This document shows positions 11,494 to 44,147 of a stretch of DNA of 64,000 nucleotides, in pieces. The DNA comes from a virus (Duplodnaviria > Caudoviricetes): the IMG/VR virus record IMGVR_UViG_2585427590_000001, positions 5,971 to 69,970 of that record; one strand, given 5' to 3'. Below the pieces are notes generated by a model that saw nothing but the letters and a program-made list of their open reading frames with translations, was not told where the DNA came from and ran no database searches. The first letter of the stretch is position 1. Each line of letters starts with the position of its first letter. Made by a program: the position numbers and the translations under genes.

Positions 11494-14400
11494 TCAACGA
11501 TACACGGGGTCAGACAAGCTCTCTCGCAGGCGAAGGCTGAGGATCTTGTTGCGGATCAGGACGCCGTCCTCCCGTTTTGCCGAATTGCTGGCCCGGGTTT
11601 TCAGCGATCGTTGTAGGGTCTCCTTCGTGATCGGCACCCCACCATGTACCGGCAACGCGTTGAACTTCTCAATCGCCCTCACCGCGTCGTCGATGGCACC
11701 ATCATCCTGAGACATGGCCGCCATCGCGAACTTGTTGACCAGGCGCTGACGCTCACCGAGAACGCGTCGCTCCGCGTTCTTCAATGCCGTGTTTCGGTCC
11801 CACGTCTCCGCCACCCTCGCCGGGTTGAAGCCGAGCGCCTGGGCAACGATGTCATCATAGCCCATCTCATCGGCCGGCAGCACCTGATCCCCGCCGACGG
11901 TAGCCAATCCTTCGCTAGCGTACCGGTAGGATTTCATCAGGTCTCGGACCGCCTTGGGCGCCATCATCTCGATGCCACGGGCAACCTCACCATCATAGAT
12001 CAGGCTGGCACCCGTGTAGAGCGTTTCCCCAAGCCCCGCCGTCGCGCCGAGCGTCTGCGTGAGCCAATACTGGTACTCGTCCTTGCCCTGAAGGTCGCGA
12101 GACGGAGACCGGAACCACAAATCTGGCATGCCGATGCGGCTCGACAGATCAATGCCGAGGTAGTGACCGGGCACACCATTCAACACCACACCGCCGAGCT
12201 CCGGCCCGAGAATGTCAACGACGTTGGCCTTGAACTGCGTTTCGAAGTCCATCGGATCGTCATCGTCGCCGAACACCATGCCGGCCAGCCCCATCAGCAG
12301 ATGGAAGCCAACGGTGCCCGAAACGCCCGCCATAAGCGACATCATGCCGACGACGCCGGCGAGCTGATACCGTGCCTCCTTCCGCGCCTGCGCGGTTTCA
12401 CCCTTCATGGACTGGTGAATATCCCGGAACAGCCGATAGAGCATGTTGATGTTGTGCTGGCGGAAGACGAGAGCGACCTTGGCAAGATCGTTCTGCAGGA
12501 CAGCAGGCCGCGACGAGTTCGCATAGTCGAAATGCGTCTTCCAGGTGAGATCGTGCGCGGTGTCGATCGCCGCCGACATCGTTTCGCCTGCGTCACGCGC
12601 CATGCGATAGGCCGCCAGCGCCGTCACTTCGCGGTTCCAGACTTCAGCGCGATGGAACGCCCAGGAGATGACACCCATCACCCGCGCCCGCAGTGGCGTA
12701 TATTCCACGCCGGTTTCACCCACGCCGGCAAGGTCATGGCTCTGGGTCCGGTCGATCAGGCCCGATTCATAGAATGCCTTGATCGCTGTCTTTTCGTCCT
12801 TCGAGAGGTTGCCGTTGACGATCGAGCCGCGGCCCCTGACCGTATCCATGGACGCTTGCGCCAGCGCGGCGCCTGCCTTGGCGAAGCTACCGAACTTCGC
12901 AGACAGGATCGGAAGGCCTAGCATGACAGTCTGCGTCATGTTGACGACGGCAGCGGCCGGTGAGGCCGCGAGGAACCACACAAAGGCAGTGCTTGTCATG
13001 GTCTGCGCGGCCTTGCTTCCGGTCGGGTTCATCACCCACTCGTGTCGCTTGGATAGCTCGTTGGCGAGGGTGACGCCACGTGTCTGATCGTCGCTCTCCT
13101 TTGCCTGATCCATCGCCTGACCGGTGAGCTCCTGCAATTCGAGCCCATATTTCAAGCGCGCGATCTGGTGCGCGCTGTGGAACATGTGCGACGAGAACAC
13201 CCGCAGTGCGTCGCCGGTGAACCCTGCTGTGCCCTGGCGATGGATGAAGCGCTTGCGAGCCGATAGATCCGGCATGCTTTCCAGATATCGCTGCCAGATC
13301 TGATCCATGATGTCGTTGCCAACGCCGGCGCCGCCAAGGATTTCCTCGATCTCGGCAACAATGCGTGGATCCATGGCCTTGCGTAGATCACTCCCCGCCT
13401 CCATGACCCCCACCTCAACCTTCGCGCCGCCAGCCCCGCGGCGGAGCTCCTCGGCAAAACGATCACGGGCGGCAGCCGTTTCGAACTTCGAGAAGCTCAG
13501 CACCTTCCCGTCGATATCCCGCTGGGTGACGAAATACCGCCCGAAGCGGCCGAGCGGGAAATACGGCTCTTCGACACGGCTTGCCTCGAAGGCGATACGC
13601 ATCTTCGTCAGCCGCGCCTTTGCCGCCCATGTGGCCTTGGTGGTTTCCGCCTTATGCGCGCTCGCCGCATCCTCTTCGGCATTGCGCCGATCGATGCCCG
13701 TCAAGCCGCTATCTCTGATCTTCTCCATCGTCTTGCGATAGCGAGCCTCTGCGCGATCGTGGGCGATCTGCTGCGCCTTCCTCACGTTATCGAGGAGGAT
13801 GTCGTCGAGCTCGAGCGCCTGCTTTTTGTAGGCGTCCCGGACGCGCTGATAGAGCTCCCTGCCCTTGACCGGCATCGCCATGTACTGCTTCCGCAGCAGA
13901 TCATATCCGGGCTTTTTCGTGGTCTCCTCGTCAGTCTTGCTCGGATCGACGCCAGCAAGGGTGCTGTTGTGCATCAGGTTCGCCAGTTCCTGGGCCCGGC
14001 TCTTGTCCTTGCCGAGGAAGCCGAGGCGGGCATATTTCAGCCATTCGCCGGCGATCTCGTCGGCGGCGGCATGCTTCGTGCCACGGTAGGCGTCCATGAG
14101 GCGCTTGACGCGAAGATAGTCGCCGACGGCGGTCATGTTTGGCCGGGCGAGTTCCGTGAAATAGTTCAGCGGGATCGTCTTCAGGAGTGCCGGCTGGATG
14201 TCGACGAGCTTGCCGTTCAGCTCCTTGATGACACGGCTCTCGCTTATGCTTTTTCGGCTGCTGACTTTCGCTGAATCATCTGGCGCGCCTGCTTCAGATA
14301 GACCTGACGCTGAGGATCGCTGGGAGGCCACTTGCTGACCGACTGGGCCCAGTTTTTCCATTCCTGCAACGTGTCGAATGGCGTTGGAGGATCGATTAGC

Positions 14401-17400
14401 CCCTGTACTGCTTGGATCTGGTTTTCCATTTTTGAAGAATGCCCTCATGAGTTTCAGAGCGGCTTCGTCAATTTTCCGATCAAGCCCCGGAACAACTGAA
14501 GTGTCATAGGGCTTACTAGCGGAAAAGTCGATAATGCCGGCTCGATTAGCCACAATTGCTGCGAAGTGGTGGAACGCATCTTTCGCCTGGGCATCCGTGA
14601 TCTTGCGATCTTTAACCAGGCTGTCGAGGAAAGGTTCAATCTCGTACGACAGGCTGGCGAGATTGTTGCCGAAAACGTTGCTGTCGCGGCTGATATTCTG
14701 GCTCGCGGCGAGGTAGTCTCGAGCCGTCTGCGTTATGCCGCCGACGGTGTTGTAGCCGTCATGTCCCATTGCATAGATCGAGTGAACCCCGGGATAAAGC
14801 GTTGCTGCTATATCCGGCGCGCTCAGCGGCGTGTTGGCGGGATGGTTATGATAGAGCACCATGCTGCGATCGGGGTTCGCCATTGCCGAGGCGAGCTTGT
14901 TGCTCATCCCGGTATAGCGCGGGTCGCCTGCGGTGCCGAAATCGATTGTAGAACCGTCATCATCGATCGCAACGAGATACTCGTGCCCGCTAGCTTGACC
15001 CTTCTCCAAGACGATGCGGCGGGCCCAATCGGCATAGCTCTCATCTTCGCCGCGCTCGGGAGCTTGGGCCTCCTTGAACCGGCCGTCGCCACGAACAACA
15101 GGATCAGGGCGCTTGGCCACGGCAGCGTTTGCAGAACCCTTCTGCTTTGGCTTCAGTGCATCGAGAATGCGGCGATGCCGCGCCGACGTCTCCGTGAGCT
15201 CTTCAGAGTGCTCCCATGGGCCAAGCTGTTTTTCAAGCGATGGGATCTGCTCCCTCGCCTCGGCGACGCGCTCGCGGTCCAACTGGGGCAGCGTAGAGAG
15301 CTTCTTGACGGTGTTGATCACGCGCATGCCGAGACCGGTCGCGTCTACGTCGGCAGCGTCCTGTACGTGCACCTGATAATCACGGTCGCCAGAGACTGTG
15401 ACTTCGAACGCCCGATCATACTGGTGCTCGATCGACAACGTGAAATCGCCGTACTTGCCGAGTTCCGTGTCGCCGGCGTGGTCGATCAGTTCCTTGCGCA
15501 TGGCCGCTGCTATTGCGGCCCCGAACTCCTTTGGCTTGTCGAAGGTCTGGCCGCCGATTGTTGCCTCAAATGGCTTGTCGGCAATTGCCTCTGCCCGCTC
15601 TGCATCCTTCTGGACGGAGCTCGAGCGCGCTTCGATCTCGTCGGCTTCCTGTTTAAGAGACCTGATCTTGCCCTTGATACGGTGCTGTTCGCGATCGTGT
15701 TCAACCGACTGGCCTTCCAGCTGGCGCAGCTTGCGACGAGTTTCCATCTCTTCAAGAATGAGAGGGTTGCCCGAGGCAGCGGCCTTCATCTCGGCGGCAT
15801 TCGCAGCCTCGCCGGCAATATCCTCGATCTCGCGGGTTTTCAGATTGCCCTTACGAACCTGCTGGATGAATCGGGCCTTCGCTTCGATGCCCTGCCACTG
15901 GCGCGCATCAAGGGTGTTCTTCGTCGCGTAGCGTAGGATTTCGATTTCGAAGTTGTCCGGATCCTCGCCATAGAGCTCGTTGCCCTGGCGGATGCCACGG
16001 CCGTCACGCTGCTCGAGGTCGGACGGACGCCACGGCGCATCGAGGTGATGGAGCGCTACCAGGCGGTTCTGCACGTTGGTGCCGGCGCCCATCTTCGGCG
16101 TTGAGCCGAGAAGGACTCGGACGCGGCCTGATCGAACCTTTCCGAACAGCTCTTCCTTCTGCGCCTCGGTGTTGGCGTCGTGAATGAAGGCGATCTCATC
16201 GGCAGGGATGCCGCGCGAGATCAGCTTTTCGCGAAGATCATCGTAGACCGAGAACGTGCTCTGCAGCGCGAGGAAGTCATCGGGCGACATATTGTCGAGC
16301 TTTTCCTGCGCCGCCTCGTCGCCCTCGTCCGCCTTCTGGATCAGGGCGCGGAGCGCGGCCTCTTCGCGGGCGCGCGCCTTCTTCGGCGTCGACAGGTCGA
16401 TAAACACCAACTGCGTGCCGCGGCTCGCGTGCCAACGATCGTAGACGCGCTTAATATTGTCGGCAGAGACGTGGACCTTTGAGCCCGGATGATCCGAATA
16501 GGCGGGATCGATCAGGCGCATGTCGAGCGCAGCCTTGCGGGCATCCGACATGACCTTCAGCATGTTGTCGGCGCCCTTTTCCACCTTCTTCGGCAGATTT
16601 TCAGCGCGCCAGACGAGAGAGCCCTTCGGGAACTCAAGATTTCCGTTATCGTCAGCCTTGCCTTCGCCAATAAAGGCTGCCTGATCCGGAGAGCGCTCGA
16701 CGGTGATATTGGTCGGCTTGCCGCCCTTCACCTTCGGCAGCGGGAGCTTCTTGCCGATCGCGGCCAGCTGCGCCTTGATGTCGTCATTGGTGATGACGTC
16801 GGCGAAGCTGAGATAGCGCTGCATCAGCTCGGGCATGTTCACGAACTTGGCAAACCGGCTGTTCAGCTTGTACTGACCGCTCGGCGAAAGCTCCCAGTCG
16901 CTTACTACCTCGCCGAACACCCTCGCCCAGGCGTCGAAATGCGCGACACCGAGATTGCGAAGCGCTTTCTCGTCGAGATACCGCTGGACCGTGAACATTT
17001 CGGCCATCGTATTGCTGAGCGGCGTTCCGGTTAGGAAAACAACGTTGTTGCCGCCGGTCTTTTCGAGAATGAACCGGCTCTTCATGTAGAGGTCGGACGC
17101 CTTCTGGCTGCCCGCTTGATTGCCGAGACCAGCAACGCGGTTCATCGATGTGGCAAAAGCGAGGTTCTTGAACTCATGCGCCTCGTCGACATAGAGCGCG
17201 TCAACGCCGAGCTCGTCGAACGTGAGGCCATCATCCTTCTTTCCGGCATCCAGCAGCCGTTCCATCTTGGCCTTGAGGTTGTCGCGCCATTTGGTGAGCT
17301 GAGCGACGTTCCGCGACTTCTCGCCAGTGTTACGGCGCAGCTCCCCGATGGACTGCTCGAGATCGTCCATCTGCTGCTGGATGAATCGGCTTTCATAGTT

Positions 17401-20400
17401 CGCGTCGATGCCGATCTTGCCGAAGGAGGAATGCGCGACGATGACGGCGTCCCAGTCACCGGTGGCGACTCGGGCAAACAGCCGCTTTCGGTTCTCCTTC
17501 TCGAAATCCTTCTTCGTAGCGGCCAATACCTTCGCGCCGGGATAGAGGCGGACGAAGTCAGCCGCCCATTGCCCAACGAGATGGTTCGGCACGACAAACA
17601 TAGGCTTGCGCGCCTGGCCGATGCGCCGCTTCTCCATCGCAGACGCGATTGCCGCAAAGGTCTTGCCTGCACCCACGGTATGGTCCGCCAGCGCAGTTCC
17701 CGATTGCAGCGACCGCCACACGAAATTCTTCTGGTGCGGCCGGAAGGAGATGATGTCATCCCCAACCTTGCCCGGTAGCGTGAGGTGGCCACCGTCGAAG
17801 CTACGCATGACATCGGTGTTGAAGGTGTCGTTGTAGAGCCGCGCCAGTTCATCACGGCGGGCGTCATTATCCCACAACCACCTGCGCCATTCCGCCTTTA
17901 CGCGCTCCGCCTTCTCGTTTGCTGCATCAGTTGCTGGTTGATTGAGGACCGTCGACCCATCGCCCATGCGGTCAGAGATCGTGATCGACTGGCCGTTCAT
18001 GACCGCACTGAGAATGGTATCGACGCTCGCGCGATCGGTTCCCCACTGCGTCTGAGCCGCCGCGGCCGGCGTCGGCACGTCGAGCACCCACTTGGCATTC
18101 GCTGCGGAATAGTAGGCCTTCGGCTTCACTGAGGACTGAGCTATGTGTTTTACGAAGTCCTCGATGTGTTTTGCCGGTACCCAGGGAGATCCGGGCTTAA
18201 CATCGATGTCGATCGCCTCGATGTCGGCCGGCTGGACGTCGCGAAGGGCGTTGACGTTTCGCCGGAAGTCCGAATCCTGCTCTGCGGCGCGCTCCGCCTC
18301 GGCGAGCTTCTGCTTCACATTACCGGACAGATAGGCGTCCGCAGTCTCATACGCGCCCGACGGTGTCTTATAGACAAGTGGTCCAAGCTCGCTGACGATC
18401 GCGCCCGTGGGCTTGCCATAGAGCCGAGACATTGCGTCCAGATCAACGCGCCCGAGATCGTTAAGGACCGTCGCGAGAGCGTCCTTGGCACTGCTGGCCG
18501 ACGTGGGGCGACGATATGGCTGCTGGGTCCGCTTCGTGAAGATGGCGGCCTTCTGCGCCGATGCTGGCTTTGTCGTCTCGCCAGTCGCCTTGGCAACGGT
18601 CGCGCTGATACCCTTATCGAAACCCTGTTCCAGTGCCGAAATCTGCGGCCAAGTGGGATCATCGCGGAATAGCCGCTTATTGGCGTCCGCATTGATCGGG
18701 CCGTGTTTCTTCACGAATCCGTCGTAGAGCGTGTTGAGCCGGTTGCGGAGGTTCTCGATCTGCTGGTCGCTGGCCTTCTCGTCGATCTGCGCACGACGCA
18801 GCCGGGCGAAGGCGTCACGCACGCGCACCATGCCCGAAACACGTTCCTTGGCAGTCTCGTTCGGGAAAGCAATAGCAGAAGACTGCGCTTGCCCGATCGA
18901 ATCGGACAGGCGCTGGTGGATGGTTCCATCCGGAGCCGCAAACATGGAGCCAACCTGCACGTCGTTGACCGTTTCAGGCACTGCAACGGTCTCGGTAGCG
19001 ACGTGACCGGGCTCCACCATGATGTTTTCGGGCAGGCTGCGGATTGCCTTGGCAAGCTCGGCCGGTGTGTCCTGACCGCCACGCGCGATCAGCGCGGGCT
19101 CATCTGGCCCATACATCGACCCGAACGCGCCGAACTCGCCGAGCATCATCTCGGGGTGAGCAATGAAGTAGTCGTTGAGCGGGACCACTTTACCGTCACG
19201 CCCGCGATAGTCGGACACACCAAGCCATTGGCTCGACGATGGTGCCTCGCCGGCAAGGCGTTTGCGGAGAATGACGATATCCGTGGTTACCTCGGTACCG
19301 GCATTCTTGAGGAACGCGTTATTCGGCAGGCGAATTGCCGCGACGAGATCGGCCTGTTTCGCAATGAGGTTTCGCGCCGCGGCGGACTGACCATCGAGGA
19401 AACGGTTGGTGACAACCATCGCCAACACGCCACCCGGGCGCAGCGCTTCGACACTCTTCGCGAAGAAGAAATTATGAATCGAGAGCTTGTTTAGATGACG
19501 ACGGTCCTTGTCGTAGACCTTCTCACTGCCGAAGGGCGGGTTGCCGATCGCGAGATCAAAATAGCCATCCGGCACCGAAAGCTTCTCGAAGCCCATGGGG
19601 GTCTGGATGTTGGCGCTTGGATAGAGGTTCTTTGCGATGCCGCCGGTGATGCGATCGAGCTCGACGCCAGTCACCTTCGCCGCATCCCTGACTTCGCCCG
19701 GCATCAAGCCGAGAAAATTGCCCGCACCGACGGACGGTTCCAGCACCTGCCCGCCCTTGAAGCCAAGCTTTCGCGCGATGTCCCAAACCGCAGACACGAT
19801 TTCCGGCGCCGTGTAATGCGCGTTGCGAGTCGAGGACTCGGCGGCGCTGTATTCTTCCGGTGAAAGCAGCGCTTTCAATTCGGCTGCCTGCTTCTCCCAG
19901 CCCTTCGCTACAGAACCGTCCTCACGGGCGAATGCCTGGCGCAAACCGCCCCACCCTACCCACTTGGCGAGCACGGACTGTTCGTCGCGCATCGCCGGCC
20001 GCTTCTGTTCGTCGAGCGTGCGAAGAAGCCTGATCGCGGCAACGTTCCCAGCGAATTTCGTCTTCTGGCCGCCTTCGCCGAGATTGTCATCGGCCGACAA
20101 TGTGTAATCAACCGCACGATGTTGAGCGGGCACCGCTGCGGATTGGACATCGCGAAGTTGATCCGATATATTCTCATCTGCTCGCGGCGGGGTTGACGCA
20201 GCCCTGTCACCCCACAAAGCGCTGAGAGGGCGTGAACTTCTTTCGGTGCGCCGCGAGCCATTCTCAAAAGCAGTCAGCAGCCACGTTTTGGCGGTGCCAT
20301 CATAGTCAAGGCGCACGCCAGCAGAACCACTTTCGTCGCGGAGCTGGATACGGCGAGTGGTGCTGCGATCTTTGTCGACGCGAAGGCGATCGATGAAACC

Positions 20401-23400
20401 TTGGAGATCCCCGAGCACTTCCGGGTGCCAAGCAAGCAGCTTGGCGAGACCAGCTCCATTGCTCGCGTTTGTGCCGGCGTTCCCCCACACCAGATCGATC
20501 GGACCAATTTCAGGATGAGAAAGAGCGCCGATAGCATCGCCGCTCTGGCGACGCTCAAGCTCAAGTGCCGCCTCACGCCACTTACCCTCGTAACCGCGCA
20601 GAATCGGGCCAAACGGACCCTGCTCTAGATCTTCATCGTCCGCTGACCGGCCGCGACGGCTTTCATCGCCTCGTGACTGATTGAAGAGGTCGGCTTCTCT
20701 GCCACGCTCCCCTCTTCCGGAAGCAGGAGATAATTCTCTCTCGCCATCTGCCACGCCTCGTCCGGACTGTACCCGCTCTCCTCGAGCTGGCTTGTCTCGC
20801 GATACGTCTGTTCGGCTGCGTCCGTCAGCGCCTGGTCGAGCTTCCCGCTCTGCTTCAGCTCCCGATACCGGGTCGGAAGGTGTTCCTTCCAGTGCTGGCG
20901 ACCCAGCTCGATCCAGTTCTGCAGGTTCACTCTCGTCTCCCGTGATCGTCGCAACGTCGAAGGCGTCCACATCGGCTGCACTCGACATCCCATCGAAGGC
21001 GGCCGCGCGCGGATCGTACTTTACACCCATATACCACGATTTCAGATATGGGCGCGCGGCCTCGCCGAGATCGCCGAGCATTGCGCTGGCGTAGGCTGCG
21101 AAGGTGCGGGCGCCCTTTTCAATGTGGTAACCGGCAAGGGTGATACCGGCTTGTAGAAGCTCCGGATCGACGCCCGAGTTGAGCTGCGATCCGTTCAGCT
21201 TCCTCCGGAGCAGCTCTCGCGCCTTGGCAGCAGCGTCTTCGGTGAAGATCTTGTTCTCGGATACTACAGGGGCAGGCTTGAGCACTGTCGGCGAAGCTGG
21301 AGTACCGGCGACAGGGCTGCTCTTCTCCCACTGCGCGAGCTCGCGCTCGCTGGGCGACGTCTGGTGGGTACGTTCACGATCAAGCGAACCATCTGGCCTG
21401 ACTTCGGCTACGCGAACACTCCAACCGCCGGCGCCGCCACGATTGAAAGCAAGCACGCGGTCCTTGCCGCCGCCGTAGGCGCCAACCTCCCGCCCAGGGC
21501 GGAAGTAATTTTCGAGCCGGTCGAGAAGCGGCGCCTTCTTCGGCTTTTTCGGCGGCGATGGTGGAGTTGCCTCCCTCGCCGCGTCAATGGCTCGCTGTCT
21601 ATCGGCTCGAAGCTTGGCTGCCTCAGCCTCTTTCCTTTCCTCCGCCGCCCGCTTCATGTCGCTGAGCGACTGCTGGAACTCCTTGCGGATAGCGTCGGCA
21701 AGCTCTTTGCCCCTGAGAACAATGCGCTGCTTGCCATCGTCTTTAAACAGCGTGAAGGTGACAGCCGGCCCCGGTCGCGTTTCAACCATGTATTTGTTGC
21801 CGCTCGCGCCGCCGACACCCCAGCGAGCGTCGATCAGATCGAGAAGCTCCTTGTTGGTAGCGTTGGCCTGGACGGCATCAGCGATGGGCTGGTCGCCGCC
21901 GTTGATCGTCGATAGGCGGCTAAGGGCATCCGACATAGCATCCCAGTCGCTACCCCAGACATCATCCCAAGGATGCTGGTCGGCATCGAAAACCTTCTCT
22001 GATGCCGGGGCCGCCGTCTTCGCCTTCTCACGAACTTCGAAGCGCTTGCCATTCTCGACCACCTCATGAGACGTGCCGAGCGATTGCTTCGCGATATGCG
22101 CCTCAGCCTTTTCGCGCGAGCCGAACCACTTCGGCGCGAACGGCTGGGCCGTCGTGCCGGACTTGAGCCATTGCTTGAAATCGCCCATCGTCGTGGAGCT
22201 GAGATCGCCGAGGCCCTTCCAGCCCGGAGCGTAGTTCTCCAGGTAGGCAGCGCGGGCCGAATCCTCGCTATCGAAACCGAGCATCACCTTGTGCTCGTCG
22301 AATCGACCATTGGCGCTCTTCTGGTCGACGACAAAGACCAGAGAACTATCGTCGAGCTCATTCACGCCTGGGCGAACGAAGGTATCGATATGATCCTTGT
22401 CGCGACCTACGGTCCCGCGGATGTAGCCATAGTGGCTCTTCATCTTCACGGACCATGGAGTGCCGTTAGGATTGACGCCCTTCCGCTCGGATCCTTCCGG
22501 GTTCTCGACAGAAATATCGAGGCCAGCGAGCTTTAGGCGACCAACCTTGTAGTTGCCTGCCTCTTTCTGAGCCTGCGTGGGCTCGGGCAGGTCATTGTTG
22601 GGAGACGTCGCCGCGTCGTGTGCGGAAGAATCTGCCGCTCGGTCTGTCCTTTGTCCTGGGACCGCGGACGCAGACACGACGCCCTGGGACATCTCGGGAA
22701 CCGGCGTGACGTCCGCCGGCGTCGACTTTGGCGTCTCGGGCGTCCGAACCGCCTCGAGCTTCTTCCGGATCGCGGGCGTGAAGCCAGCCCACTTCGATTT
22801 CTCGCTACGCTTGACGCCGGTCTCGGCGAGGATGCGCTTGCGGGCGAGATCGTCTAGTGTCAGGTCCCACCAGTCGGCGAAACTATCGCCTTCGGCGGTG
22901 ACGTCAGGCGCTGCGTTCTCTGCGGCCTCCTCGTTCTTGCGATCACGCTGCCACTGGCGGAGCCGCGTGTCATTGACCGGATGCATGTGCACAGGCAGCG
23001 CAGACCGAGCTTCCTTCGCCGCGCGATCGACGCGATAGCGGTAATCATCCGCCATCGAGGTGACGGCGGTCGTCGAGACATTGAAGGCGTCGGCTAGCCG
23101 CTTCACTTCGGCGGCACTAACCCGTTCAAGGTCCGTGTGAGCTTCCCTTCCCAACTTCTTCGCAATAAAGCGAGATTTGGCTAGATCGAACAACGCGGCG
23201 TGGTTCTCGTCCGGAAGAACGACGGTCTTTCCGATTACCTTGCGGCTATTTGGACCAGCATCACCGATTTCTCGCTCGATCAGCGGATTTCGCTCAAGGT
23301 CCTGCTTCTCGACCTGCGCCGGCGTCAGCTTGTCGACATAGAGGCGATTGACCGGCACCTGCAGAACTTCGCCATCATCCGTGCTGACAACGGCCTCGGT

Positions 23401-26400
23401 TTCGCCTTCCTCGTAGCTCTCGACCTTCGCCGCAAACCTTCCGACCTTGGAATCATCGACGATGACGCGTTGACCAGGCGACGGGCGGCCGCGCAAGCGC
23501 TCGCTCGCCGCCTGCATGTCCTTCTGAGGCGGAAGTGGCTCATTCTTGATCTCGCTGGCGATCGGCGCCTGCGGCTCCAACGCAGGGTCTTTCGAAAATT
23601 CAGGTATGCTGTCGTTGATCGGCACCGGGCCTTTCTCAATCGGGTTTTCCCGGTTGAGCTGCTCGGGCGACTTGGCGATCTGCGAGATGCTCGCGATCGG
23701 CACCTGATAGACTTCGCCGCTACCGCCATCGATGACGACTGCCTCATCGCCCTCGTAACCGTCCACGCGGGCCATGAACGGGTCGACGCCCTCGTGATCG
23801 ACACGAACAGTCGCGCCGACGGCTGGGCGGCCTTCCTGCTCACGCTGGATGTCAGCAGCGGCAGCTCGCCCCATCTCGTCGATGTGTTCATCGGCAGTCT
23901 TCCCCTGCCGCGCCATATCGAGCATCCAATCAGGCGTCTTGTACGGATCAACCGCCTGATCTTGCCGGCTCCGGATTTGCTCCTCGGCATGCTGCACCGA
24001 GCGCCCGATCGGACCCTTGGGTTGAGGCGCGACCTCCGGTGCCGGCGCTGCTGCGGCAGGTGCCGCTGCAGAGTGTTCGGGGGAGGCTGGGCTAAACGCG
24101 CCGCCTGCGCCGCCCATGCCTGCACCCATGGCACCGCCAGCCGCGATACCGGATGCAACCGCCTCCCCCACGCCTTCCGTCAGAGACTGGTTTGGATCAG
24201 CCTTCTGAACGGCCGCGTTTTCCGCAATGGTCTGTAACGCGCCCTGTGGCGCTTCTTCGAGCAGGCCCTCGCCCACGAAACCACGGGTGGCTCCGGCGAC
24301 AACGCGCTTAACGATGTTGCCACCGACACCCTCGGCGATGATCTTGGCGAGCGCCCGATCGCCCATACCGCCAAACATGCCGGTGGCAACACCTGCTGTG
24401 AGGAACGCTTGGGAGGCGGCGTCCTCGGTAAGAGCCTTGATGGCATCGTCCTCCGACATGCCACTCTGCACCATCGCCCGCACGGCGTCGGTCTGCGCCA
24501 GCTGCTCGCGGGGAAGCTTCCCGATCTTTTCACGCACATTGCGCGCTGAATCGGCTCCGCCCATGGTGCCTTCGGTGATAGCGCCGGCGAGCGTTGCCGT
24601 TCTGGCAGCAGCCGCGGCGGCCACACGTTCCGATGCGCCACCCGCAAGAGCACGCAGATATGCGCCGCGCGCCAACACGCCGCCTGGCAACATCGTGACG
24701 ACGGTACCGGGAGCACTTTCGCCGACGGTGCGGAGATAGCTGCGGGGATCGCGCCACGCTGGGCCGAAAGTATGCTTCTTATCGTCCCACCAGTTCTTGG
24801 CGTCGGCTTCCTGCTGGCGCTCGGTCACGCTCGCATTCGCCAGTTGCTGGGAATCGGCCATCTTCTGGTCGAGGGTCTTGCCCATCACCCAACGATCGAT
24901 GTCGTCGGACGCTTTCAAGAAGTCGTCACCGCCGGGCAGTTTGTGGAAAACGGTGTCGGCGAGCGACGATAGCGACTGTCCAACGCCAATCGTACCGGAT
25001 TTCAGGATGCGGGCGATGTCGCCACCAATGCCGCCGGAGCGGTTATCGGCTTCCCACTGCTTCTGCCAGTTCGGGAGCTCGCTCTCGTCGATCGCAACAT
25101 AGCGGCCCGGGTTCTGCGCCTCGAGCTGCTGCTGCCGATCGGTCACACCGGCGTTGTGCTCCTCGGTGAAAGCTCGCATCCGGTTTTGTTCAGCCTGGGC
25201 GCTAGCGTCTGCCTGCCGCCGATCGGCAGCCGCCACCTGCGTATCCACCGTCTGCTGAATCGGATTGCTGTCGGGGTAAAGCCCCATTGGGTCCTTGGCC
25301 GTGAACTGAGCATCGGCCACGATCGTGGGCGCGTCTGATTTCGTGGCAACCGCCGGCGCATCATCATGACCGTCACGAGCGTCCACCGTCTCGATATGCC
25401 AGTTTTCGTTCTTGAGCGGAAAGCGCATCCCGTACTTGCCGGCATTCGCGTGCACCCAATCGACGACTTCCTTCGGCGCCGATGAAAATTCGCCTCCGTT
25501 CCAGCCGAGATCGGCCGCATCGCCATGCTGGTGGCGCGATCCACCGGGGGCGCCGATGTTGGCGGACATGCCAGACTGCTTGAAAATCGGCTTCCACTTC
25601 TGACCGGCAGCAACCGGGCCCATGGCGTCAACGTCAGCCAGCCATGCCTTGCGGTCGATCCCGTACTTGCCGGCGTTGTCCGCGATGATCTGCGCCTGCC
25701 GCTCCGGAGAGCGCGCGCCGGAAAGGATGTCGAGGCCGGATTTCACAAAGTCCGGCGCATCGTTGAACATCGCAGTGAGACCAGACTGAAGGCCCGGCTT
25801 CATATTGCTGATGTACTCGGCGGGCTTGCCTGGCTGAAGCTTGCTCAGCAGCATGGAGCTGTCGGCGCTGGCGTCCTTCGGCTGCTCCGCCTTCTTCGGG
25901 TTCAGGATTGCCTCGAACGGATCGACGACGTTGCCATCGAGGCCGGGTGCAAATGCTGTCTTGGCGGAAGGCTTGCCCTGCCCGGACTTGTAGAAGACGT
26001 GGCGACCGCGCTTTGTCGTCTCCTGCATTGAGCTCGCCCAATCGGGCATGACGGAATCGGCGTGGTAATGATCTGCGCCGCCGGTCTCATCAGGGAGTGC
26101 GCCGGAGAACACACCATCGATGATCGCCTCGGCACGCTGGCGAATGGCTGGATCCTGCTGGGCGCGCTTGGCAGCCTCGCCCGGGGCTTCGTATCCAGTG
26201 AACTGGCTTTTCTGGCGCACAACGTCGCCGGGGCTGATGCCTCTCTCAGAAGAGCGGTTGCGAATAACGGATGCAACGTCGGCCATGCCGGCGTCACCCT
26301 CGCCCGCGGCTTCAGCAATCACCGTGTTGACGAGATCGCTTCGGTCGGCATCACTGAACGATGGTCGCGTTGATGCGCTCGACTCACTGGTCTTTGGAGC

Positions 26401-26478
26401 TTCAGGGGCTTTGCCGCCGTAGAGATTGAGAGGATCTTTCCAGCTATCGTCTCGGCCAAGGCCAATCACCAGAGGCAT
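11494..26478 (-). CDS. Giant DarB-like polyvalent virion protein (~4990 aa): SleB-type hydrolase, M15 peptidase, InPase-like, BECR-like nuclease, N6-adenine MTase, SNF2 helicase, JAB/MPN-like and PLxRFG domains
   Basis: Motifs TVIAEA.GEG/HYHADSVMPDW/HVFY; SRHQHGDAAD/ENWH; HYGYIRGTVGRDKDHID; IDLVWG/WLLTAFE; EPSVGAGNF/GNPPF; VGAGKT/DEAH/TGTP; HNHP..S..D; PLGRFG. GGAG RBS favours ATG 26478 over 26511. Confidence 0.9.
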   Translation of the reverse strand: MPLVIGLGRDDSWKDPLNLYGGKAPEAPKTSESSASTRPSFSDADRSDLVNTVIAEAAGEGDAGMADVASVIRNRSSERGISPGDVVRQKSQFTGYEAPGEAAKRAQQDPAIRQRAEAIIDGVFSGALPDETGGADHYHADSVMPDWASSMQETTKRGRHVFYKSGQGKPSAKTAFAPGLDGNVVDPFEAILNPKKAEQPKDASADSSMLLSKLQPGKPAEYISNMKPGLQSGLTAMFNDAPDFVKSGLDILSGARSPERQAQIIADNAGKYGIDRKAWLADVDAMGPVAAGQKWKPIFKQSGMSANIGAPGGSRHQHGDAADLGWNGGEFSSAPKEVVDWVHANAGKYGMRFPLKNENWHIETVDARDGHDDAPAVATKSDAPTIVADAQFTAKDPMGLYPDSNPIQQTVDTQVAAADRRQADASAQAEQNRMRAFTEEHNAGVTDRQQQLEAQNPGRYVAIDESELPNWQKQWEADNRSGGIGGDIARILKSGTIGVGQSLSSLADTVFHKLPGGDDFLKASDDIDRWVMGKTLDQKMADSQQLANASVTERQQEADAKNWWDDKKHTFGPAWRDPRSYLRTVGESAPGTVVTMLPGGVLARGAYLRALAGGASERVAAAAAARTATLAGAITEGTMGGADSARNVREKIGKLPREQLAQTDAVRAMVQSGMSEDDAIKALTEDAASQAFLTAGVATGMFGGMGDRALAKIIAEGVGGNIVKRVVAGATRGFVGEGLLEEAPQGALQTIAENAAVQKADPNQSLTEGVGEAVASGIAAGGAMGAGMGGAGGAFSPASPEHSAAAPAAAAPAPEVAPQPKGPIGRSVQHAEEQIRSRQDQAVDPYKTPDWMLDMARQGKTADEHIDEMGRAAAADIQREQEGRPAVGATVRVDHEGVDPFMARVDGYEGDEAVVIDGGSGEVYQVPIASISQIAKSPEQLNRENPIEKGPVPINDSIPEFSKDPALEPQAPIASEIKNEPLPPQKDMQAASERLRGRPSPGQRVIVDDSKVGRFAAKVESYEEGETEAVVSTDDGEVLQVPVNRLYVDKLTPAQVEKQDLERNPLIEREIGDAGPNSRKVIGKTVVLPDENHAALFDLAKSRFIAKKLGREAHTDLERVSAAEVKRLADAFNVSTTAVTSMADDYRYRVDRAAKEARSALPVHMHPVNDTRLRQWQRDRKNEEAAENAAPDVTAEGDSFADWWDLTLDDLARKRILAETGVKRSEKSKWAGFTPAIRKKLEAVRTPETPKSTPADVTPVPEMSQGVVSASAVPGQRTDRAADSSAHDAATSPNNDLPEPTQAQKEAGNYKVGRLKLAGLDISVENPEGSERKGVNPNGTPWSVKMKSHYGYIRGTVGRDKDHIDTFVRPGVNELDDSSLVFVVDQKSANGRFDEHKVMLGFDSEDSARAAYLENYAPGWKGLGDLSSTTMGDFKQWLKSGTTAQPFAPKWFGSREKAEAHIAKQSLGTSHEVVENGKRFEVREKAKTAAPASEKVFDADQHPWDDVWGSDWDAMSDALSRLSTINGGDQPIADAVQANATNKELLDLIDARWGVGGASGNKYMVETRPGPAVTFTLFKDDGKQRIVLRGKELADAIRKEFQQSLSDMKRAAEERKEAEAAKLRADRQRAIDAAREATPPSPPKKPKKAPLLDRLENYFRPGREVGAYGGGKDRVLAFNRGGAGGWSVRVAEVRPDGSLDRERTHQTSPSERELAQWEKSSPVAGTPASPTVLKPAPVVSENKIFTEDAAAKARELLRRKLNGSQLNSGVDPELLQAGITLAGYHIEKGARTFAAYASAMLGDLGEAARPYLKSWYMGVKYDPRAAAFDGMSSAADVDAFDVATITGDESEPAELDRAGSPALEGTPSDPVSGAEAEREARPGADGRSRTDVSRDKPARGERVQSGRGVADGERELSPASGRGERGREADLFNQSRGDESRRGRSADDEDLEQGPFGPILRGYEGKWREAALELERRQSGDAIGALSHPEIGPIDLVWGNAGTNASNGAGLAKLLAWHPEVLGDLQGFIDRLRVDKDRSTTRRIQLRDESGSAGVRLDYDGTAKTWLLTAFENGSRRTERSSRPLSALWGDRAASTPPRADENISDQLRDVQSAAVPAQHRAVDYTLSADDNLGEGGQKTKFAGNVAAIRLLRTLDEQKRPAMRDEQSVLAKWVGWGGLRQAFAREDGSVAKGWEKQAAELKALLSPEEYSAAESSTRNAHYTAPEIVSAVWDIARKLGFKGGQVLEPSVGAGNFLGLMPGEVRDAAKVTGVELDRITGGIAKNLYPSANIQTPMGFEKLSVPDGYFDLAIGNPPFGSEKVYDKDRRHLNKLSIHNFFFAKSVEALRPGGVLAMVVTNRFLDGQSAAARNLIAKQADLVAAIRLPNNAFLKNAGTEVTTDIVILRKRLAGEAPSSSQWLGVSDYRGRDGKVVPLNDYFIAHPEMMLGEFGAFGSMYGPDEPALIARGGQDTPAELAKAIRSLPENIMVEPGHVATETVAVPETVNDVQVGSMFAAPDGTIHQRLSDSIGQAQSSAIAFPNETAKERVSGMVRVRDAFARLRRAQIDEKASDQQIENLRNRLNTLYDGFVKKHGPINADANKRLFRDDPTWPQISALEQGFDKGISATVAKATGETTKPASAQKAAIFTKRTQQPYRRPTSASSAKDALATVLNDLGRVDLDAMSRLYGKPTGAIVSELGPLVYKTPSGAYETADAYLSGNVKQKLAEAERAAEQDSDFRRNVNALRDVQPADIEAIDIDVKPGSPWVPAKHIEDFVKHIAQSSVKPKAYYSAANAKWVLDVPTPAAAAQTQWGTDRASVDTILSAVMNGQSITISDRMGDGSTVLNQPATDAANEKAERVKAEWRRWLWDNDARRDELARLYNDTFNTDVMRSFDGGHLTLPGKVGDDIISFRPHQKNFVWRSLQSGTALADHTVGAGKTFAAIASAMEKRRIGQARKPMFVVPNHLVGQWAADFVRLYPGAKVLAATKKDFEKENRKRLFARVATGDWDAVIVAHSSFGKIGIDANYESRFIQQQMDDLEQSIGELRRNTGEKSRNVAQLTKWRDNLKAKMERLLDAGKKDDGLTFDELGVDALYVDEAHEFKNLAFATSMNRVAGLGNQAGSQKASDLYMKSRFILEKTGGNNVVFLTGTPLSNTMAEMFTVQRYLDEKALRNLGVAHFDAWARVFGEVVSDWELSPSGQYKLNSRFAKFVNMPELMQRYLSFADVITNDDIKAQLAAIGKKLPLPKVKGGKPTNITVERSPDQAAFIGEGKADDNGNLEFPKGSLVWRAENLPKKVEKGADNMLKVMSDARKAALDMRLIDPAYSDHPGSKVHVSADNIKRVYDRWHASRGTQLVFIDLSTPKKARAREEAALRALIQKADEGDEAAQEKLDNMSPDDFLALQSTFSVYDDLREKLISRGIPADEIAFIHDANTEAQKEELFGKVRSGRVRVLLGSTPKMGAGTNVQNRLVALHHLDAPWRPSDLEQRDGRGIRQGNELYGEDPDNFEIEILRYATKNTLDARQWQGIEAKARFIQQVRKGNLKTREIEDIAGEAANAAEMKAAASGNPLILEEMETRRKLRQLEGQSVEHDREQHRIKGKIRSLKQEADEIEARSSSVQKDAERAEAIADKPFEATIGGQTFDKPKEFGAAIAAAMRKELIDHAGDTELGKYGDFTLSIEHQYDRAFEVTVSGDRDYQVHVQDAADVDATGLGMRVINTVKKLSTLPQLDRERVAEAREQIPSLEKQLGPWEHSEELTETSARHRRILDALKPKQKGSANAAVAKRPDPVVRGDGRFKEAQAPERGEDESYADWARRIVLEKGQASGHEYLVAIDDDGSTIDFGTAGDPRYTGMSNKLASAMANPDRSMVLYHNHPANTPLSAPDIAATLYPGVHSIYAMGHDGYNTVGGITQTARDYLAASQNISRDSNVFGNNLASLSYEIEPFLDSLVKDRKITDAQAKDAFHHFAAIVANRAGIIDFSASKPYDTSVVPGLDRKIDEAALKLMRAFFKNGKPDPSSTGANRSSNAIRHVAGMEKLGPVGQQVASQRSSASGLSEAGAPDDSAKVSSRKSISESRVIKELNGKLVDIQPALLKTIPLNYFTELARPNMTAVGDYLRVKRLMDAYRGTKHAAADEIAGEWLKYARLGFLGKDKSRAQELANLMHNSTLAGVDPSKTDEETTKKPGYDLLRKQYMAMPVKGRELYQRVRDAYKKQALELDDILLDNVRKAQQIAHDRAEARYRKTMEKIRDSGLTGIDRRNAEEDAASAHKAETTKATWAAKARLTKMRIAFEASRVEEPYFPLGRFGRYFVTQRDIDGKVLSFSKFETAAARDRFAEELRRGAGGAKVEVGVMEAGSDLRKAMDPRIVAEIEEILGGAGVGNDIMDQIWQRYLESMPDLSARKRFIHRQGTAGFTGDALRVFSSHMFHSAHQIARLKYGLELQELTGQAMDQAKESDDQTRGVTLANELSKRHEWVMNPTGSKAAQTMTSTAFVWFLAASPAAAVVNMTQTVMLGLPILSAKFGSFAKAGAALAQASMDTVRGRGSIVNGNLSKDEKTAIKAFYESGLIDRTQSHDLAGVGETGVEYTPLRARVMGVISWAFHRAEVWNREVTALAAYRMARDAGETMSAAIDTAHDLTWKTHFDYANSSRPAVLQNDLAKVALVFRQHNINMLYRLFRDIHQSMKGETAQARKEARYQLAGVVGMMSLMAGVSGTVGFHLLMGLAGMVFGDDDDPMDFETQFKANVVDILGPELGGVVLNGVPGHYLGIDLSSRIGMPDLWFRSPSRDLQGKDEYQYWLTQTLGATAGLGETLYTGASLIYDGEVARGIEMMAPKAVRDLMKSYRYASEGLATVGGDQVLPADEMGYDDIVAQALGFNPARVAETWDRNTALKNAERRVLGERQRLVNKFAMAAMSQDDGAIDDAVRAIEKFNALPVHGGVPITKETLQRSLKTRASNSAKREDGVLIRNKILSLRLRESLSDPVYR
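14244..14429 (-). CDS. Nested 61-aa ORF in the +1 frame of the giant gene
   Basis: ATG with upstream GAGG; protein-like helical sequence (DPPTPFDTLQEWKNWAQ); the giant's own frame here is a low-complexity linker. Confidence 0.55.
   Translation of the reverse strand: MENQIQAVQGLIDPPTPFDTLQEWKNWAQSVSKWPPSDPQRQVYLKQARQMIQRKSAAEKA
20144..20172 (+). promoter_or_regulatory. Sigma70-like promoter antisense to the giant gene
   Basis: TGGACA-N17-TATATT. Confidence 0.6.
20180..20260 (+). ncRNA. Candidate structured, tRNA-sized antisense RNA
   Basis: Starts ~7 nt after the -10 box; GCTCGCGGCG pairs with CGCCGCGAGC; internal GGGTTGAC/GTCACCC hairpin; ends in GCCA. Confidence 0.45.
20625..20930 (-). 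CDS. Nested 101-aa ORF in the +1 frame of the giant gene (weakly TnpV-like helical protein)
   Basis: GGAG-N7-GTG; NWIELGRQHWKEHLPTRYRELKQSGKLDQAL...AWQMARENYLLLPEE; the giant's own frame here is an R/G/S/D/E-rich linker. Confidence 0.7.
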   Translation of the reverse strand: MNLQNWIELGRQHWKEHLPTRYRELKQSGKLDQALTDAAEQTYRETSQLEESGYSPDEAWQMARENYLLLPEEGSVAEKPTSSISHEAMKAVAAGQRTMKI

Positions 26479-26500
26479 GCGCGCGGGCTCCATCGTAAGA

Positions 26501-26555
26501 GCCGCACTCATGCGCGGTAAATGACAGGCGATTTATAGGCAATCCCGACAGTTTT
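26501..26555 (-). promoter_or_regulatory. Putative late promoter plus GCGCATGAGTGC leader hairpin of the giant gene
   Basis: AAAACT.TCGGGATTGCC-TATAAA, then 16 nt, then the hairpin; matches 7681-7736. Confidence 0.6.
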
Positions 26556-31063: not shown

Positions 31064-31378
31064 ATGACCGACAACCCCTCACCGATTCCCATCACACCAC
31101 TCGGTGCGGTAATGCCGCGCTCGAAGGGCGCCAAGATCGTGTACAGCGTTGCCGATCTCGCCCATCTGTTGCTGCATGAATGGCCCACTGAAAAACGCGG
31201 TGACGCCTGGTACGCGGCCCAGTCCGCTTGCCTACGAGCTCTGGAAGCTCAGTCGAACGGATATGCTGCACGCGCTGCGTTCGTGATGGCTGCCAGAGAT
31301 GCTGGCATTTCGATTGTGCAGGGCGATGTTCTGCCATCGTGGCAATCGAAGCACACGAAAAAAACCGCTCCCGAATGA
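31064..31378 (+). CDS. DUF982 family protein
   Basis: SVADLAHLLLHEWP...AQSACLRAL...ARAAFVMAARDAGI. Confidence 0.8.
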   Translation: MTDNPSPIPITPLGAVMPRSKGAKIVYSVADLAHLLLHEWPTEKRGDAWYAAQSACLRALEAQSNGYAARAAFVMAARDAGISIVQGDVLPSWQSKHTKKTAPE

Positions 31379-31417
31379 CGGAAGCGGGTCAAGCGTGAAC
31401 CCATAGCGGGGCTAATT

Positions 31418-32032
31418 TTACGCCGCAACCGCGGTGGCATCAACACCCTTCGGCCCGTCAATGATGTAGCGGTAGAGTTCCTCTGCGTGCCGCGTCACAT
31501 CGGTCGGACCTGTCATCGGCAGTGTGAGCTCAACGCAATAGAGCCGCAACTGCTCGGGGCTCCAATAACAGGGGTTTGCGTGGCGTGAGGTTACGATACC
31601 AGTATCCGGCTCCGGCACCTCACAACTCTCGCAGTCCGTCGGCGGCTCGCTGTTGACGAACTCCCGCTCAAACGTCCCCTCATCGTATACGGCAACTACG
31701 CCCAGGCTGTCGCGGGCGATGTAGTCTTCCGGCCGCGCCTTGGCATCCTCTGGCACCTGAAGCAGCGTGACGCCGTCGCCAGCAATCACCATCTGGCCGC
31801 ATGCATAGATCTCGCGGACCCAGCTCGGCAGTGTGCTCCAATCGTCCTCCGGAGAGGCGATAATCTCACGTGCCTGCACTGCCTCGACCCGCACGGGTAT
31901 CTTCAAATATTCGCGCATTGCTTTAACGCTCTCCTTCAAGCCTATGGTCCTGCTGATGTTTGTAACGGTATGATGCTCGAAATTATGCTCTAAAATCTTG
32001 GCGATCTCGTCAGGCGTCCACTGATCGCTCAT
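31418..32032 (-). CDS. Phage hypothetical protein
   Basis: 204 aa; AAGGAG RBS; ATGA overlap; YLKIPVRVEAVQ motif. Confidence 0.7.
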   Translation of the reverse strand: MSDQWTPDEIAKILEHNFEHHTVTNISRTIGLKESVKAMREYLKIPVRVEAVQAREIIASPEDDWSTLPSWVREIYACGQMVIAGDGVTLLQVPEDAKARPEDYIARDSLGVVAVYDEGTFEREFVNSEPPTDCESCEVPEPDTGIVTSRHANPCYWSPEQLRLYCVELTLPMTGPTDVTRHAEELYRYIIDGPKGVDATAVAA

Positions 32033-33220: not shown

Positions 33221-33297
33221 TGGTTGCGGGAGCTGGATTTGAACCAGCGACCTATAGGTTATGAGCCTAACGAGCTACCGGGCTGCTCTACCCCGCA
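33221..33297 (-). tRNA. tRNA-Met(CAT), initiator-like variant
   Basis: TGCGGGGTAGAGCAGCCCGGTAGCTCG-TTAGGCTCATAACCTAT-AGGTCGCTGGTTCAAATCCAGCTCCCGCAACCA; cloverleaf with encoded CCA. Confidence 0.92.
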
Positions 33298-43451: not shown

Positions 43452-44147
43452 TCATCCTGCCACCTGCTGTCGTTCACCCTGCAGCTTGGCTATCTGCTCG
43501 TCGATTTCCCTCGCGCGCTCGTGCTTGGCCGCCTGTTCCACCCACCCCGGCTTTTGGCGGAGGCAAGCATTGAGAAGCGCTGGACCAAATGCGGTGAGAA
43601 GGATCATGAAATGCTCCACCGAGGGCTGAGAGCGCCGGTGAAGCCAGTTTTCCACGCTGGCTGCGGGAATGCCGGTTTCTGCTTCGACATGATGGATCGT
43701 CGATCGCGGAAACCTATCCCGCAGCCAGGCGGTAAGCCCCTCTACGTCAAACAGGAGTGCTGCGTTCTTCCCGTAAAGTTGCGGTCTGTTGCGGGCAGAA
43801 CCGCGCCAGCCTCTTGGGCCATATTCTAGGCACTGAGGCTCGTCTTCCGACAAACCCACGCATTCGGGCCGTAACTCCCAACAAGGAATGGAGTTCGGGC
43901 CGTGCGGGATGTAGGAGGACTGGCGAGGCAGCAGGGCAATCAAGTGCTGGATGCGGACAGCGTTCACAATCATGGCCTGCTGGCTCACCCGCATGGGTGC
44001 GGGTTTTCTGAAGCGATCGGCGAGGTAGCTAAGAAGCTTGTCGATCGTCTTCGGGAGGATCGCTGGAACGGGCCTGACACCCGTTCCAGCGACAGTCAGG
44101 ATCCGGCTGGTGCCGAAACCCCGGGGGTTGGATATGGAATGGTTCAT
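43452..44147 (-). CDS. CII-like HTH regulator (start uncertain)
   Basis: C-terminal HTH VEAETGIPAASVENWL..RSQP; follows cro. Confidence 0.6.
   Translation of the reverse strand: MNHSISNPRGFGTSRILTVAGTGVRPVPAILPKTIDKLLSYLADRFRKPAPMRVSQQAMIVNAVRIQHLIALLPRQSSYIPHGPNSIPCWELRPECVGLSEDEPQCLEYGPRGWRGSARNRPQLYGKNAALLFDVEGLTAWLRDRFPRSTIHHVEAETGIPAASVENWLHRRSQPSVEHFMILLTAFGPALLNACLRQKPGWVEQAAKHERAREIDEQIAKLQGERQQVAG

Follow-up and report, generated by a model that had tools for sequence, protein, structure and literature searches.

A candidate small-RNA gene antisense to the spacer behind the PBECR1 domain of a giant polyvalent phage protein

The locus: a promoter-like site and a fold behind PBECR1

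The DNA considered here is a stretch of 64,000 nucleotides (nt) (positions 5,971 to 69,970 of IMG/VR virus record IMGVR_UViG_2585427590_000001, a provirus record of 69,970 bases), hereafter called the window. On its - strand lies a giant open reading frame (ORF) for a DarB-like polyvalent protein of 5005 amino acids (aa), along which Pfam places Hydrolase_2, VanY, InPase and PBECR1 domains, an Eco57I-type methylase, parts of an SNF2 helicase and LPD39. The protein is polyvalent in the sense of the main text of Iyer et al. 2017 (PMC5512222) and, by its combination of InPase, LPD39, PBECR1, methylase and SNF2, is a typical member of the PBECR polyvalent proteins treated there. Among named proteins it is closest to the DarB-like giant proteins of Sinorhizobium phage PBC5 and Agrobacterium phage Atu_ph08 (PMC6630229). 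On the opposite strand, within the DNA that encodes the spacer between PBECR1 and the methylase, a promoter-like site is followed by a segment predicted to fold into a three-way junction. The two occupy codons ~2084-2123 of the giant ORF and the RNA itself codons 2085-2111 of 5005, about 6.3 kb from the gene's start codon (Table 1). Comparison among homologues shows that the promoter-like site and the fold are under selection at the nucleotide level, on the + strand, and are linked to PBECR1. From this we infer, with a probability of about three in four, that a real small-RNA gene lies antisense to the giant gene, in the DNA coding for the spacer that follows PBECR1, and that its RNA would be produced.

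Table 1. Coordinates of the giant gene, the antisense element and its parts, and the overlapping gene (positions of the window).
Feature	Position	Strand	Basis
Giant ORF, 5005 aa, DarB-like polyvalent protein	11494..26511	-	ORF list, Pfam
PBECR1 domain, residues 1998-2085, predicted BECR-fold endoribonuclease; C-terminal end WLLTAFENG	20257..20520	-	PF18809
-35-like hexamer TGGACA (extended TTGGACA from 20143)	20144..20149	+	consensus scan, conservation
-10-like hexamer TATATT, built on codons AAT ATA	20167..20172	+	consensus scan, conservation
Predicted transcription start, 7-8 nt past the -10	20179..20180	+	inferred from spacing
Full match to covariance model R2 (type B)	20173..20271	+	114.3 bits, seed sequence
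P1 closing helix, 5' strand, pairs with 20250-20258	20180..20188	+	fold, covariation
P2 hairpin (20189-20193/20209-20213; 20195-20198/20205-20208)	20189..20213	+	fold, covariation
Junction ACAAA; with the preceding CCCC, the conserved CCCCACAA	20214..20218	+	invariant or nearly invariant columns
P3 hairpin (20219-20230/20238-20249)	20219..20249	+	fold, covariation
P1 closing helix, 3' strand	20250..20258	+	fold, covariation
Tail CAUUCUCAAAAGC, weakly U-rich	20259..20271	+	sequence
Overlapping gene, ~101 aa, inside the giant ORF	20625-20930	-, +1 frame of giant ORF	synonymous depression, conserved frame

PBECR1 is a ribonuclease (RNase) by prediction, according to the main text of Iyer et al. 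2017 (PMC5512222). In the giant protein, the isolated 136-aa segment scores 27.6 bits against PF18809, which equals the gathering score of that model (27.6), the same domain scores 21.3 bits inside a 2667-aa piece, and all 12 of 12 aligned homologues match as well. The BECR-type domain proposed in a preliminary description of this DNA can therefore be named as PBECR1. Its alignment (A2) shows two His, one Arg and two Lys to be invariant, and a sequence search of the PDB with the domain profile found no solved relative. The codons for WLLTAFE, which the element had been said to adjoin, do lie at 20283-20263, directly before the site on the - strand.

The preliminary description had also reported TGGACA-N17-TATATT on the + strand inside the - strand gene, and this is present at 20144-20172. 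By a simple consensus match it agrees with the sigma70 consensus at 10 of 12 positions, the only one to do so among six promoter-like sites in the giant gene; shuffled versions of the gene contain 3.2 +/- 1.9 such sites. The ends of the segment that follows pair perfectly over 10 base pairs, as had been claimed (GCTCGCGGCG at 20180-20189 with CGCCGCGAGC at 20249-20258), and the segment does end in GCCA at 20257-20260, of which CA follows the pairing. Its supposed internal hairpin exists, but there are two hairpins rather than one, so that the whole forms a three-way junction. Several G-U pairs in P3 would be impossible on the - strand. The + strand of 20178-20262 folds at -46.0 kcal/mol (z-score -4.2), with none of 200 shuffles as good, as against a z-score of -1.66 and 9 of 200 shuffles for the - strand of the same segment.

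Taken as a single sequence, the case that promoter and fold are more than chance is only moderate. A scan of the whole window in 85-nt segments gives nine segment-strands with a composition-corrected z-score of -4.0 or below, and there are 39 inverted repeats of at least 10 nt within 120 nt. The most stable corrected folds of the window are found at 24311-24395 (- strand), 43651-43735 (both strands), 32761 (- strand) and 57731 (- strand), with z-scores of -6.0 to -4.2; these four beat the element on single-sequence grounds.

The comparative evidence, namely the position of the site, the frozen rare codons, the rank of the fold and its covariation, is judged decisive. Full-length matches to the PBECR1-linker-methylase region, 18 in all, were gathered from viral contigs and Rhizobiaceae genomes. 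For the rate analysis 13 non-redundant sequences were used, with L004, L009, L041, L042 and L045 dropped as duplicates and L007 dropped because its frame breaks upstream; the synonymous rate is the ratio of observed to expected differences per codon, taken per sequence pair. The antisense -10 box that the preliminary description had envisaged in homologues was found: the 13 non-redundant homologues all share the promoter-like site, at one and the same column of the alignment, as compared with 4 of 13 for the next most widely shared promoter-like site on either strand of 4 kb. TGGAC of the -35 is kept in all 13, and so is TAnnnT of the -10, which reads TATATT, TATCTT, TACATT, TATGTT or TATACT. 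The spacing between the -10 and the beginning of P1 is shared by both clades of linker (short and long) and by the type A loci described below.

The codons under the two hexamers are frozen. GTC CAA, for Val-Gln under the -35, shows 0 synonymous changes against 69.6 expected, and ATA, for Ile under the -10, shows 0 against 32.1, while the ratio of observed to expected over most of the RNA body is about 0.7-1.0. Neither ATA (7 of 200 Ile codons in the giant gene) nor CAA (26 of 204 Gln codons) is a common choice. Outside the region of the overlapping gene, 17 of 615 conserved-residue columns lack synonymous change; these three codons are among them, and Val-Gln is the sole adjacent pair. The ATA at 20169 is the rarest codon of 61 fixed-codon columns, and the CAA at 20145 is the next rarest fixed codon outside the overlapping-gene region.

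Two other causes of this freezing were considered and rejected. An overlapping protein gene is not indicated, as the candidate frames show no synonymous depression: the ratio is about 0.7-1.4 downstream of the ATG inside GATGTCCAA (20145 to 19956) and about 1.0-1.3 antisense of PBECR1, and the frames of the + strand ORFs 20401..20628 and 20681..21094 are not conserved among the homologues. Translational pausing at rare codons leaves unexplained the invariance of GTC, a common codon, as well as the fixed spacing of the hexamers and the construction of the same site from other codons in other subfamilies.

Covariation of the fold, which we will refer to as type B, was assessed in several ways. 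Single sequences of the short-linker clade repeat the three-way junction, with z-scores of -5.0, -3.2, -3.2, -2.4, -2.2, -1.2, -0.8 and -0.2, and two long-linker sequences folded whole give values of about 0. An RNAalifold scan of a 4-kb codon alignment of 8 sequences, in segments of 100 columns on both strands (682 segment-strands), ranks the + strand at the element first by consensus energy (-30.3; next -24.4) and first by structure conservation index (0.79; next outside the region 0.59). After column shuffling, its z-score is -6.8 on the + strand (0 of 200) versus -2.9 on the - strand. A covariance model, R2, was built from 11 close sequences with the structure supplied; its single match in the window is by construction, the window being a seed sequence. 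The non-seed members that it finds score 27-53 bits (L010/L178/L179, L011/L180, L046, L034, L115, L086/L182, L141, L188, L190, L191). The covariation set comprises 22 distinct sequences, 11 of them non-seed. Paired cells make up 88.1% of this alignment. Double changes occur in 19 of its 27 pairs, versus 9.2 +/- 1.6 after shuffling (0 of 500) and 4-8 for slid controls. Both partners have changed in 6 of 8 pairs of P1 (helix 2), 7 of 9 of P2 (helices 3 and 4) and 5 of 9 of P3 (helix 5). Covarying stems in homologues, the other comparative feature envisaged at the outset, are thus borne out by 19 compensated pairs and by first rank among 682. G-U cells number 58 against 18 A-C cells; since G-U outnumbers A-C here and in type A, the fold is selected on the strand opposite the protein. 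A plain MAFFT alignment of distant type B sequences (A4) puts the helices out of register and misses P1, and the model-guided alignment was used instead. In alignment A1 the sequence L046 is misaligned by 3 columns, which makes the counts conservative for its row.

Types A and B of the putative RNA and their association with PBECR1

A profile of PBECR1 plus linker (A2) was used to collect 80 metagenome and 80 viral loci, two sets that overlap in origin and include many near-duplicates; removal of identical flanks and of loci lacking the W motif left 99 distinct loci of the 160. An antisense sigma70-like site occurs 90-119 nt past the W codon of WLLTAF in 50 of 98 distinct loci, and the following bin adds 13 more. 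Elsewhere a bin typically contains about 5 sites; on the sense strand, the 90-119 nt bin contains 2 of 98. When loci are clustered at 70% identity, 22 of 32 clusters possess an antisense promoter-like site. The codons that make up the -10 differ by subfamily (AAT ATA, ATT GTA, ACT ATA, AAG ATA), and the distance is the same.

Behind these sites we recognize a second type of RNA, type A, which can be read as a three-way junction from 7 nt past the -10. Its helices P1, P2 and P3 are variable, with compensating sequences. Its two loops, CGAGCUGUGUCAU and GUGUCUGUCCUCG, with their conserved GUGUC, hardly change between low-GC gut elements and GC-rich proteobacteria. In many members U4-U7 follows P1. 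For a set of 23 type A sequences, chosen for diversity among loci with a promoter match, RNAalifold on a plain MAFFT alignment finds 24 pairs, 21 of which have compensatory changes. Among 40 distinct type A sequences, 90.1% of cells are paired (63.7% when shuffled), double-change cells number 294 against 99.8 +/- 9.7 in shuffled alignments, the covariation score is 0.772 (0.271 shuffled; at most 0.178 slid), and G-U cells number 124 versus 12 A-C cells. Type B has the same topology with different loops, and its junction is conserved (Table 1).

With the type A model, R1, matches are obtained in 72 of the 80 metagenome loci and 63 of the 80 viral ones, many of them non-seed, and in L038, L076 and L080 as well; the window has none. 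Every match is antisense and directly behind PBECR1, except for one extra match on the sense strand of L235. When R2 is used as well, 77 of 80 metagenome and 78 of 80 viral loci have an RNA of one type or the other. Five loci have no model match, including L117 and L208, which are the same short contig ending just past the domain. The others are L123, L109 and L219; L123 carries TTGACA-17-TACATT, and what lies downstream can be drawn by eye as yet another three-way junction. Weak R1 matches of 24-27 bits share a position ~1 kb further on, in the methylase part (L047:2778-2861, L044:2799-2889 and L181:2499-2571, all on the - strand of the loci); at the same position the window has no match at E-values up to 0.01.

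In the long-linker clade (L010, L011, L044, L174, L178-L181), a single PBECR1 is followed by type A and then type B in tandem, and two type A copies stand in a row in L038 and L226. The clade of the window has lost type A, so that its promoter adjoins type B.

The association follows the domain and not the enzyme downstream of it. Among 34 loci in which the methylase alone is shared, none has the motif. In L026, where PBECR1 is followed by another domain, the RNA is retained along with a weakened site. L079, at 43% identity, has TGGACT-17-TATATT on AAT ATA and GTC CAG between two tandem copies of PBECR1, and L212 has two copies with an RNA behind each. In L110 a solo PBECR1 ORF of 236 aa has both RNA and site in its tail. 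Within two whole genomes R2 matches at the PBECR1 locus only, the first-look filter having scored part of the candidates. These cases support the view that the RNA travels with PBECR1 through domain changes, rather than with the downstream methylase. Among known phages, a type A RNA (87 bits) occurs together with PBECR1 in bbp10, a structural-cassette gene of Bordetella phage BPP-1 (L203/L244), and the type B of the window occurs in Sinorhizobium phage PBC5. In L094, L095 and L186 a stop codon breaks the linker frame inside the RNA region and the RNA still scores 80 bits; in L106 the stops fall past the linker region and the RNA scores 62.8 bits.

Type A-like RNAs also occur free-standing, at 36-60 bits (L247/L249, G038:C17:30032-30127 and 31366-31457; L248, G074:C1:878049-878132). 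None of these three R1 matches has a relative of the giant protein nearby or a long ORF across it, and one has TTGACA-16-TAAAGT 7 nt upstream with no ORF across. The existence of such copies indicates that the RNA, rather than the peptide, is the unit. An ORF of 146 aa (L249:1854-2294) lies near a free-standing copy.

Rfam 15 returned no match at the site of the window (E-values up to 10) or at the RNA sites of 16 loci (E-values up to 1), the only real match in the latter check being a transfer RNA (tRNA) at L115:212-298. The family therefore appears uncurated, and we suggest that intergenic screens missed it because it lies inside ORFs. The main text of Iyer et al. 2017 (PMC5512222) makes no mention of antisense, noncoding, small RNA, linker or TnpV. 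Literature on the carrier phages, among the matches listed, mentions no such RNA in titles or abstracts.

Possible roles and competing explanations

Were the element to act as a small-RNA gene, the housekeeping-type promoter at 20144-20172 would start transcription at about 20180, and the first ~80 nt would fold as a three-way junction, with P1 (20180-20188/20250-20258) closing the hairpins P2 and P3. The element belongs to a family with two sister types, A (with its two GUGUC loops) and B, both found behind PBECR1 domains. This family is spread over phages and mobile elements of several bacterial groups, shuffled along together with PBECR1.

Type III toxin-antitoxin systems, of the ToxIN type, consist of an endoribonuclease toxin and a folded RNA antitoxin. 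The arrangement described here resembles them in that a predicted endoribonuclease and a small structured RNA lie side by side and are inherited together, with fold and loops conserved. It differs in that the RNA is on the opposite strand, overprinted on coding sequence and downstream of the domain; in that there is no tandem repeat array upstream of the toxin (R2 matches the window once); and in that the putative toxin forms a single domain within a protein of 5005 aa that is presumably injected. A comparable role, in which the RNA is the cognate partner of the adjoining predicted RNase, may apply, and we hold it at somewhat below even odds. As a pseudo-substrate or inhibitor, the RNA would protect the cell producing the giant protein from the nuclease. 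This role is favoured because the conservation of the loops exceeds what antisense pairing needs, because each copy of the domain keeps its own RNA, and because copies occur without an opposing gene. A fuller version, which we offer more tentatively still, is that each PBECR1 carries its own RNA antidote (inhibitor or decoy), overprinted antisense on its C-terminal spacer, that nuclease and antidote shuffle as one DNA module, and that the free-standing copies in bacterial genomes would confer immunity against injected PBECR1 effectors. It would amount to a toxin-antitoxin pair in which a protein domain and an RNA gene share the same DNA.

Irrespective of its role, an RNA made from these sites would define a widespread, uncurated family of structured small RNAs, overlooked within ORFs, on the opposite strand and inside what is supposed to be a disordered protein spacer. 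It would mean that an RNA gene can dictate the linkers of giant effector proteins of phages and plasmids. For PBECR1, a predicted nuclease with neither a known target nor a known regulator, an RNA with two conserved GUGUC loops, always found next to the domain, would offer the first way into experiments, and with BPP-1 (bbp10) and PBC5 (type B) as known carriers the idea is directly testable.

Several observations weigh against a small-RNA gene of this kind, or against its proposed partnership with PBECR1. In the family promoter scan a secondary peak lies inside the domain (bin -120), with 24 of 99 loci on the antisense and 18 of 99 on the sense strand; this peak indicates that conserved coding sequence can create positional promoter peaks. 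The long-linker clade has type A between the promoter and type B, and because type B follows, the U-rich tract past type A may not terminate transcription. In the window, the tail after P1, CAUUCUC, has 3 U in 7 and makes a poor terminator. Alignments A6 and A7, made with the models, were fitted to the structure, and model E-values are rough. The loci were collected by way of the domain, so that the direction from domain to RNA alone is well sampled. A search of 151 Rhizobiaceae genomes with R1 gave 3 matches in 2 genomes, none of them beside PBECR1, which disfavours a strict co-dependence of RNA and domain. Read as reverse complement, the type A loops encode the conserved peptide motifs T-R-T-D-T and D-D-T-A-R, and part of the conservation of the loops could stem from the protein. 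Finally, the RNase activity of PBECR1 is itself a prediction, and binding of the RNA by PBECR1 is hypothetical.

The RNA might, alternatively, be a pure regulator in cis, pairing with the giant messenger RNA and triggering its cleavage or blocking ribosomes before they reach the methylase-helicase part, with the stem-loops as kissing loops. Antisense regulators classically take the form of stem-loop RNAs transcribed from a promoter of their own within a gene, and lambda oop, P22 sar and hok/sok are cis-antisense RNAs of phages or of type I toxin-antitoxin systems. With these the element has in common a short antisense RNA, stem-loops and a sigma70-type promoter of its own inside or against a gene. 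The RNA is by arrangement perfectly complementary to the giant messenger, and if termination is leaky, transcription from 20180 enters the antisense of PBECR1. It differs from them in lying ~6.3 kb inside an ORF, at an interdomain spacer and not at a ribosome-binding site; at that distance from the start codon it cannot mask the initiation of translation. Nor do the known cases share its three-way junction, loops conserved across distant lineages, or a tie to one protein domain kept through shuffling, with free-standing copies besides. For antisense pairing any sequence would do, yet the type A loops hardly vary (a constraint on the peptide could explain part of this), every copy of a tandem PBECR1 retains its own RNA, and free-standing copies have a promoter without an opposing ORF. 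We consider a purely cis-acting regulator unlikely, if deserving of serious attention.

Much less probable is an element that works as DNA, be it a folded single-stranded signal (an origin, a packaging site or a single-strand promoter) or a binding site for a protein. G-T pairs form in DNA too, and single-strand promoters are known on conjugative plasmids. Some PBECR1 proteins, moreover, are found on conjugative elements that transfer single strands (PMC5512222, main text). The hexamers, however, stand outside the helices, at the distance of a promoter from its start, and not within a hairpin that would make them double-stranded; many members have a U/T-rich tail past the closing helix; and the carriers include the double-stranded DNA phages PBC5 and BPP-1.

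Selection on the linker peptide, as a motif for processing or as a flexible spacer, would make site and fold by-products of the codons. This has in its favour that the type A loops are the reverse complement of TRTDT and DDTAR(L), and that the core of P1 in the window derives from Arg-Arg and Pro-Pro codons. It is countered by covariation, which we regard as having largely refuted it: the stems covary through non-synonymous changes, and between the motifs the peptide is free to vary. The hexamers, moreover, coincide exactly with frozen synonymous sites and rare codons, G-U cells exceed A-C cells in a way that marks the non-coding strand, subfamilies use different codons to make a -10 at the same distance, and copies exist outside any long ORF. 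Little is left of this explanation.

Equally hard to sustain is the tRNA-like mimic drawn in the preliminary description, in which an acceptor stem and a 3' CCA would make the RNA a decoy for a tRNase. The likeness consists of a length of ~80 nt, a GC-rich closing helix and, judged on the window's sequence only, a CCA past that helix. The drawing does not hold: there are three helices, not four, and no T-loop, ARAGORN predicts nothing at the site (its only prediction in the window is a tRNA-Met (CAT) at 33221-33297 on the - strand), and Rfam is negative there as well. Nor is the CCA conserved, being present in the window, L002, L003, L005, L006 and L013, replaced in close homologues by CCC (L007, L008 and L026), UCC and others, and different again in L046, L171 and L115. 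Finally, a chance promoter match beside a meaningless stable fold, although the single-sequence statistics are unremarkable for a GC-rich window of 64 kb, can be dismissed in the face of all the comparative results (conservation, covariation and the family promoter scan).

An overlapping gene and neighbouring observations

About 450 nt from the RNA element on the + strand, which is upstream in the giant gene, a second coding region overlaps the giant frame (Table 1). Over codons ~1858-1932 of the giant frame the synonymous ratio of observed to expected falls to 0.05-0.15 while the residues vary, and all 19 sequences compared (the window and 18 loci) have an open +1 frame that ends at a conserved stop. 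The protein of ~101 aa that it encodes is highly conserved. Of 66 columns in its alignment, 38, 34 and 55 vary at codon positions 1, 2 and 3, respectively, a pattern dominated by the wobble position. The window has a GGGAGA motif resembling a Shine-Dalgarno sequence and a GTG start, and in the homologues GGAG precedes the start codon by 6-10 nt, with ATG used in 11 of 14 and GTG in the other 3. Weak matches to TnpV (PF14198) were obtained for 6 of 7 sequences, with E-values of 0.001-0.09, all below the gathering score.

In PBC5 (L007 = L243; record 24524-26154), the upstream giant frame runs into the TnpV-like frame and ends at its stop (gp22). The annotated start of gp21 lies only inside the methylase, which leaves PBECR1 and the RNA in an unannotated gap. 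This split of the giant gene could be a frameshift, a sequencing error or real.

On the - strand of the window, at 21018-21045, the codons AAA TCG TGG TAT (21033-21042) are near-fixed. A weak sense-strand site, CTGAAA-16-TAAAGT, lies ~90 nt upstream of the start of the overlapping gene, is found in 4 of 13 homologues and is a candidate internal promoter.

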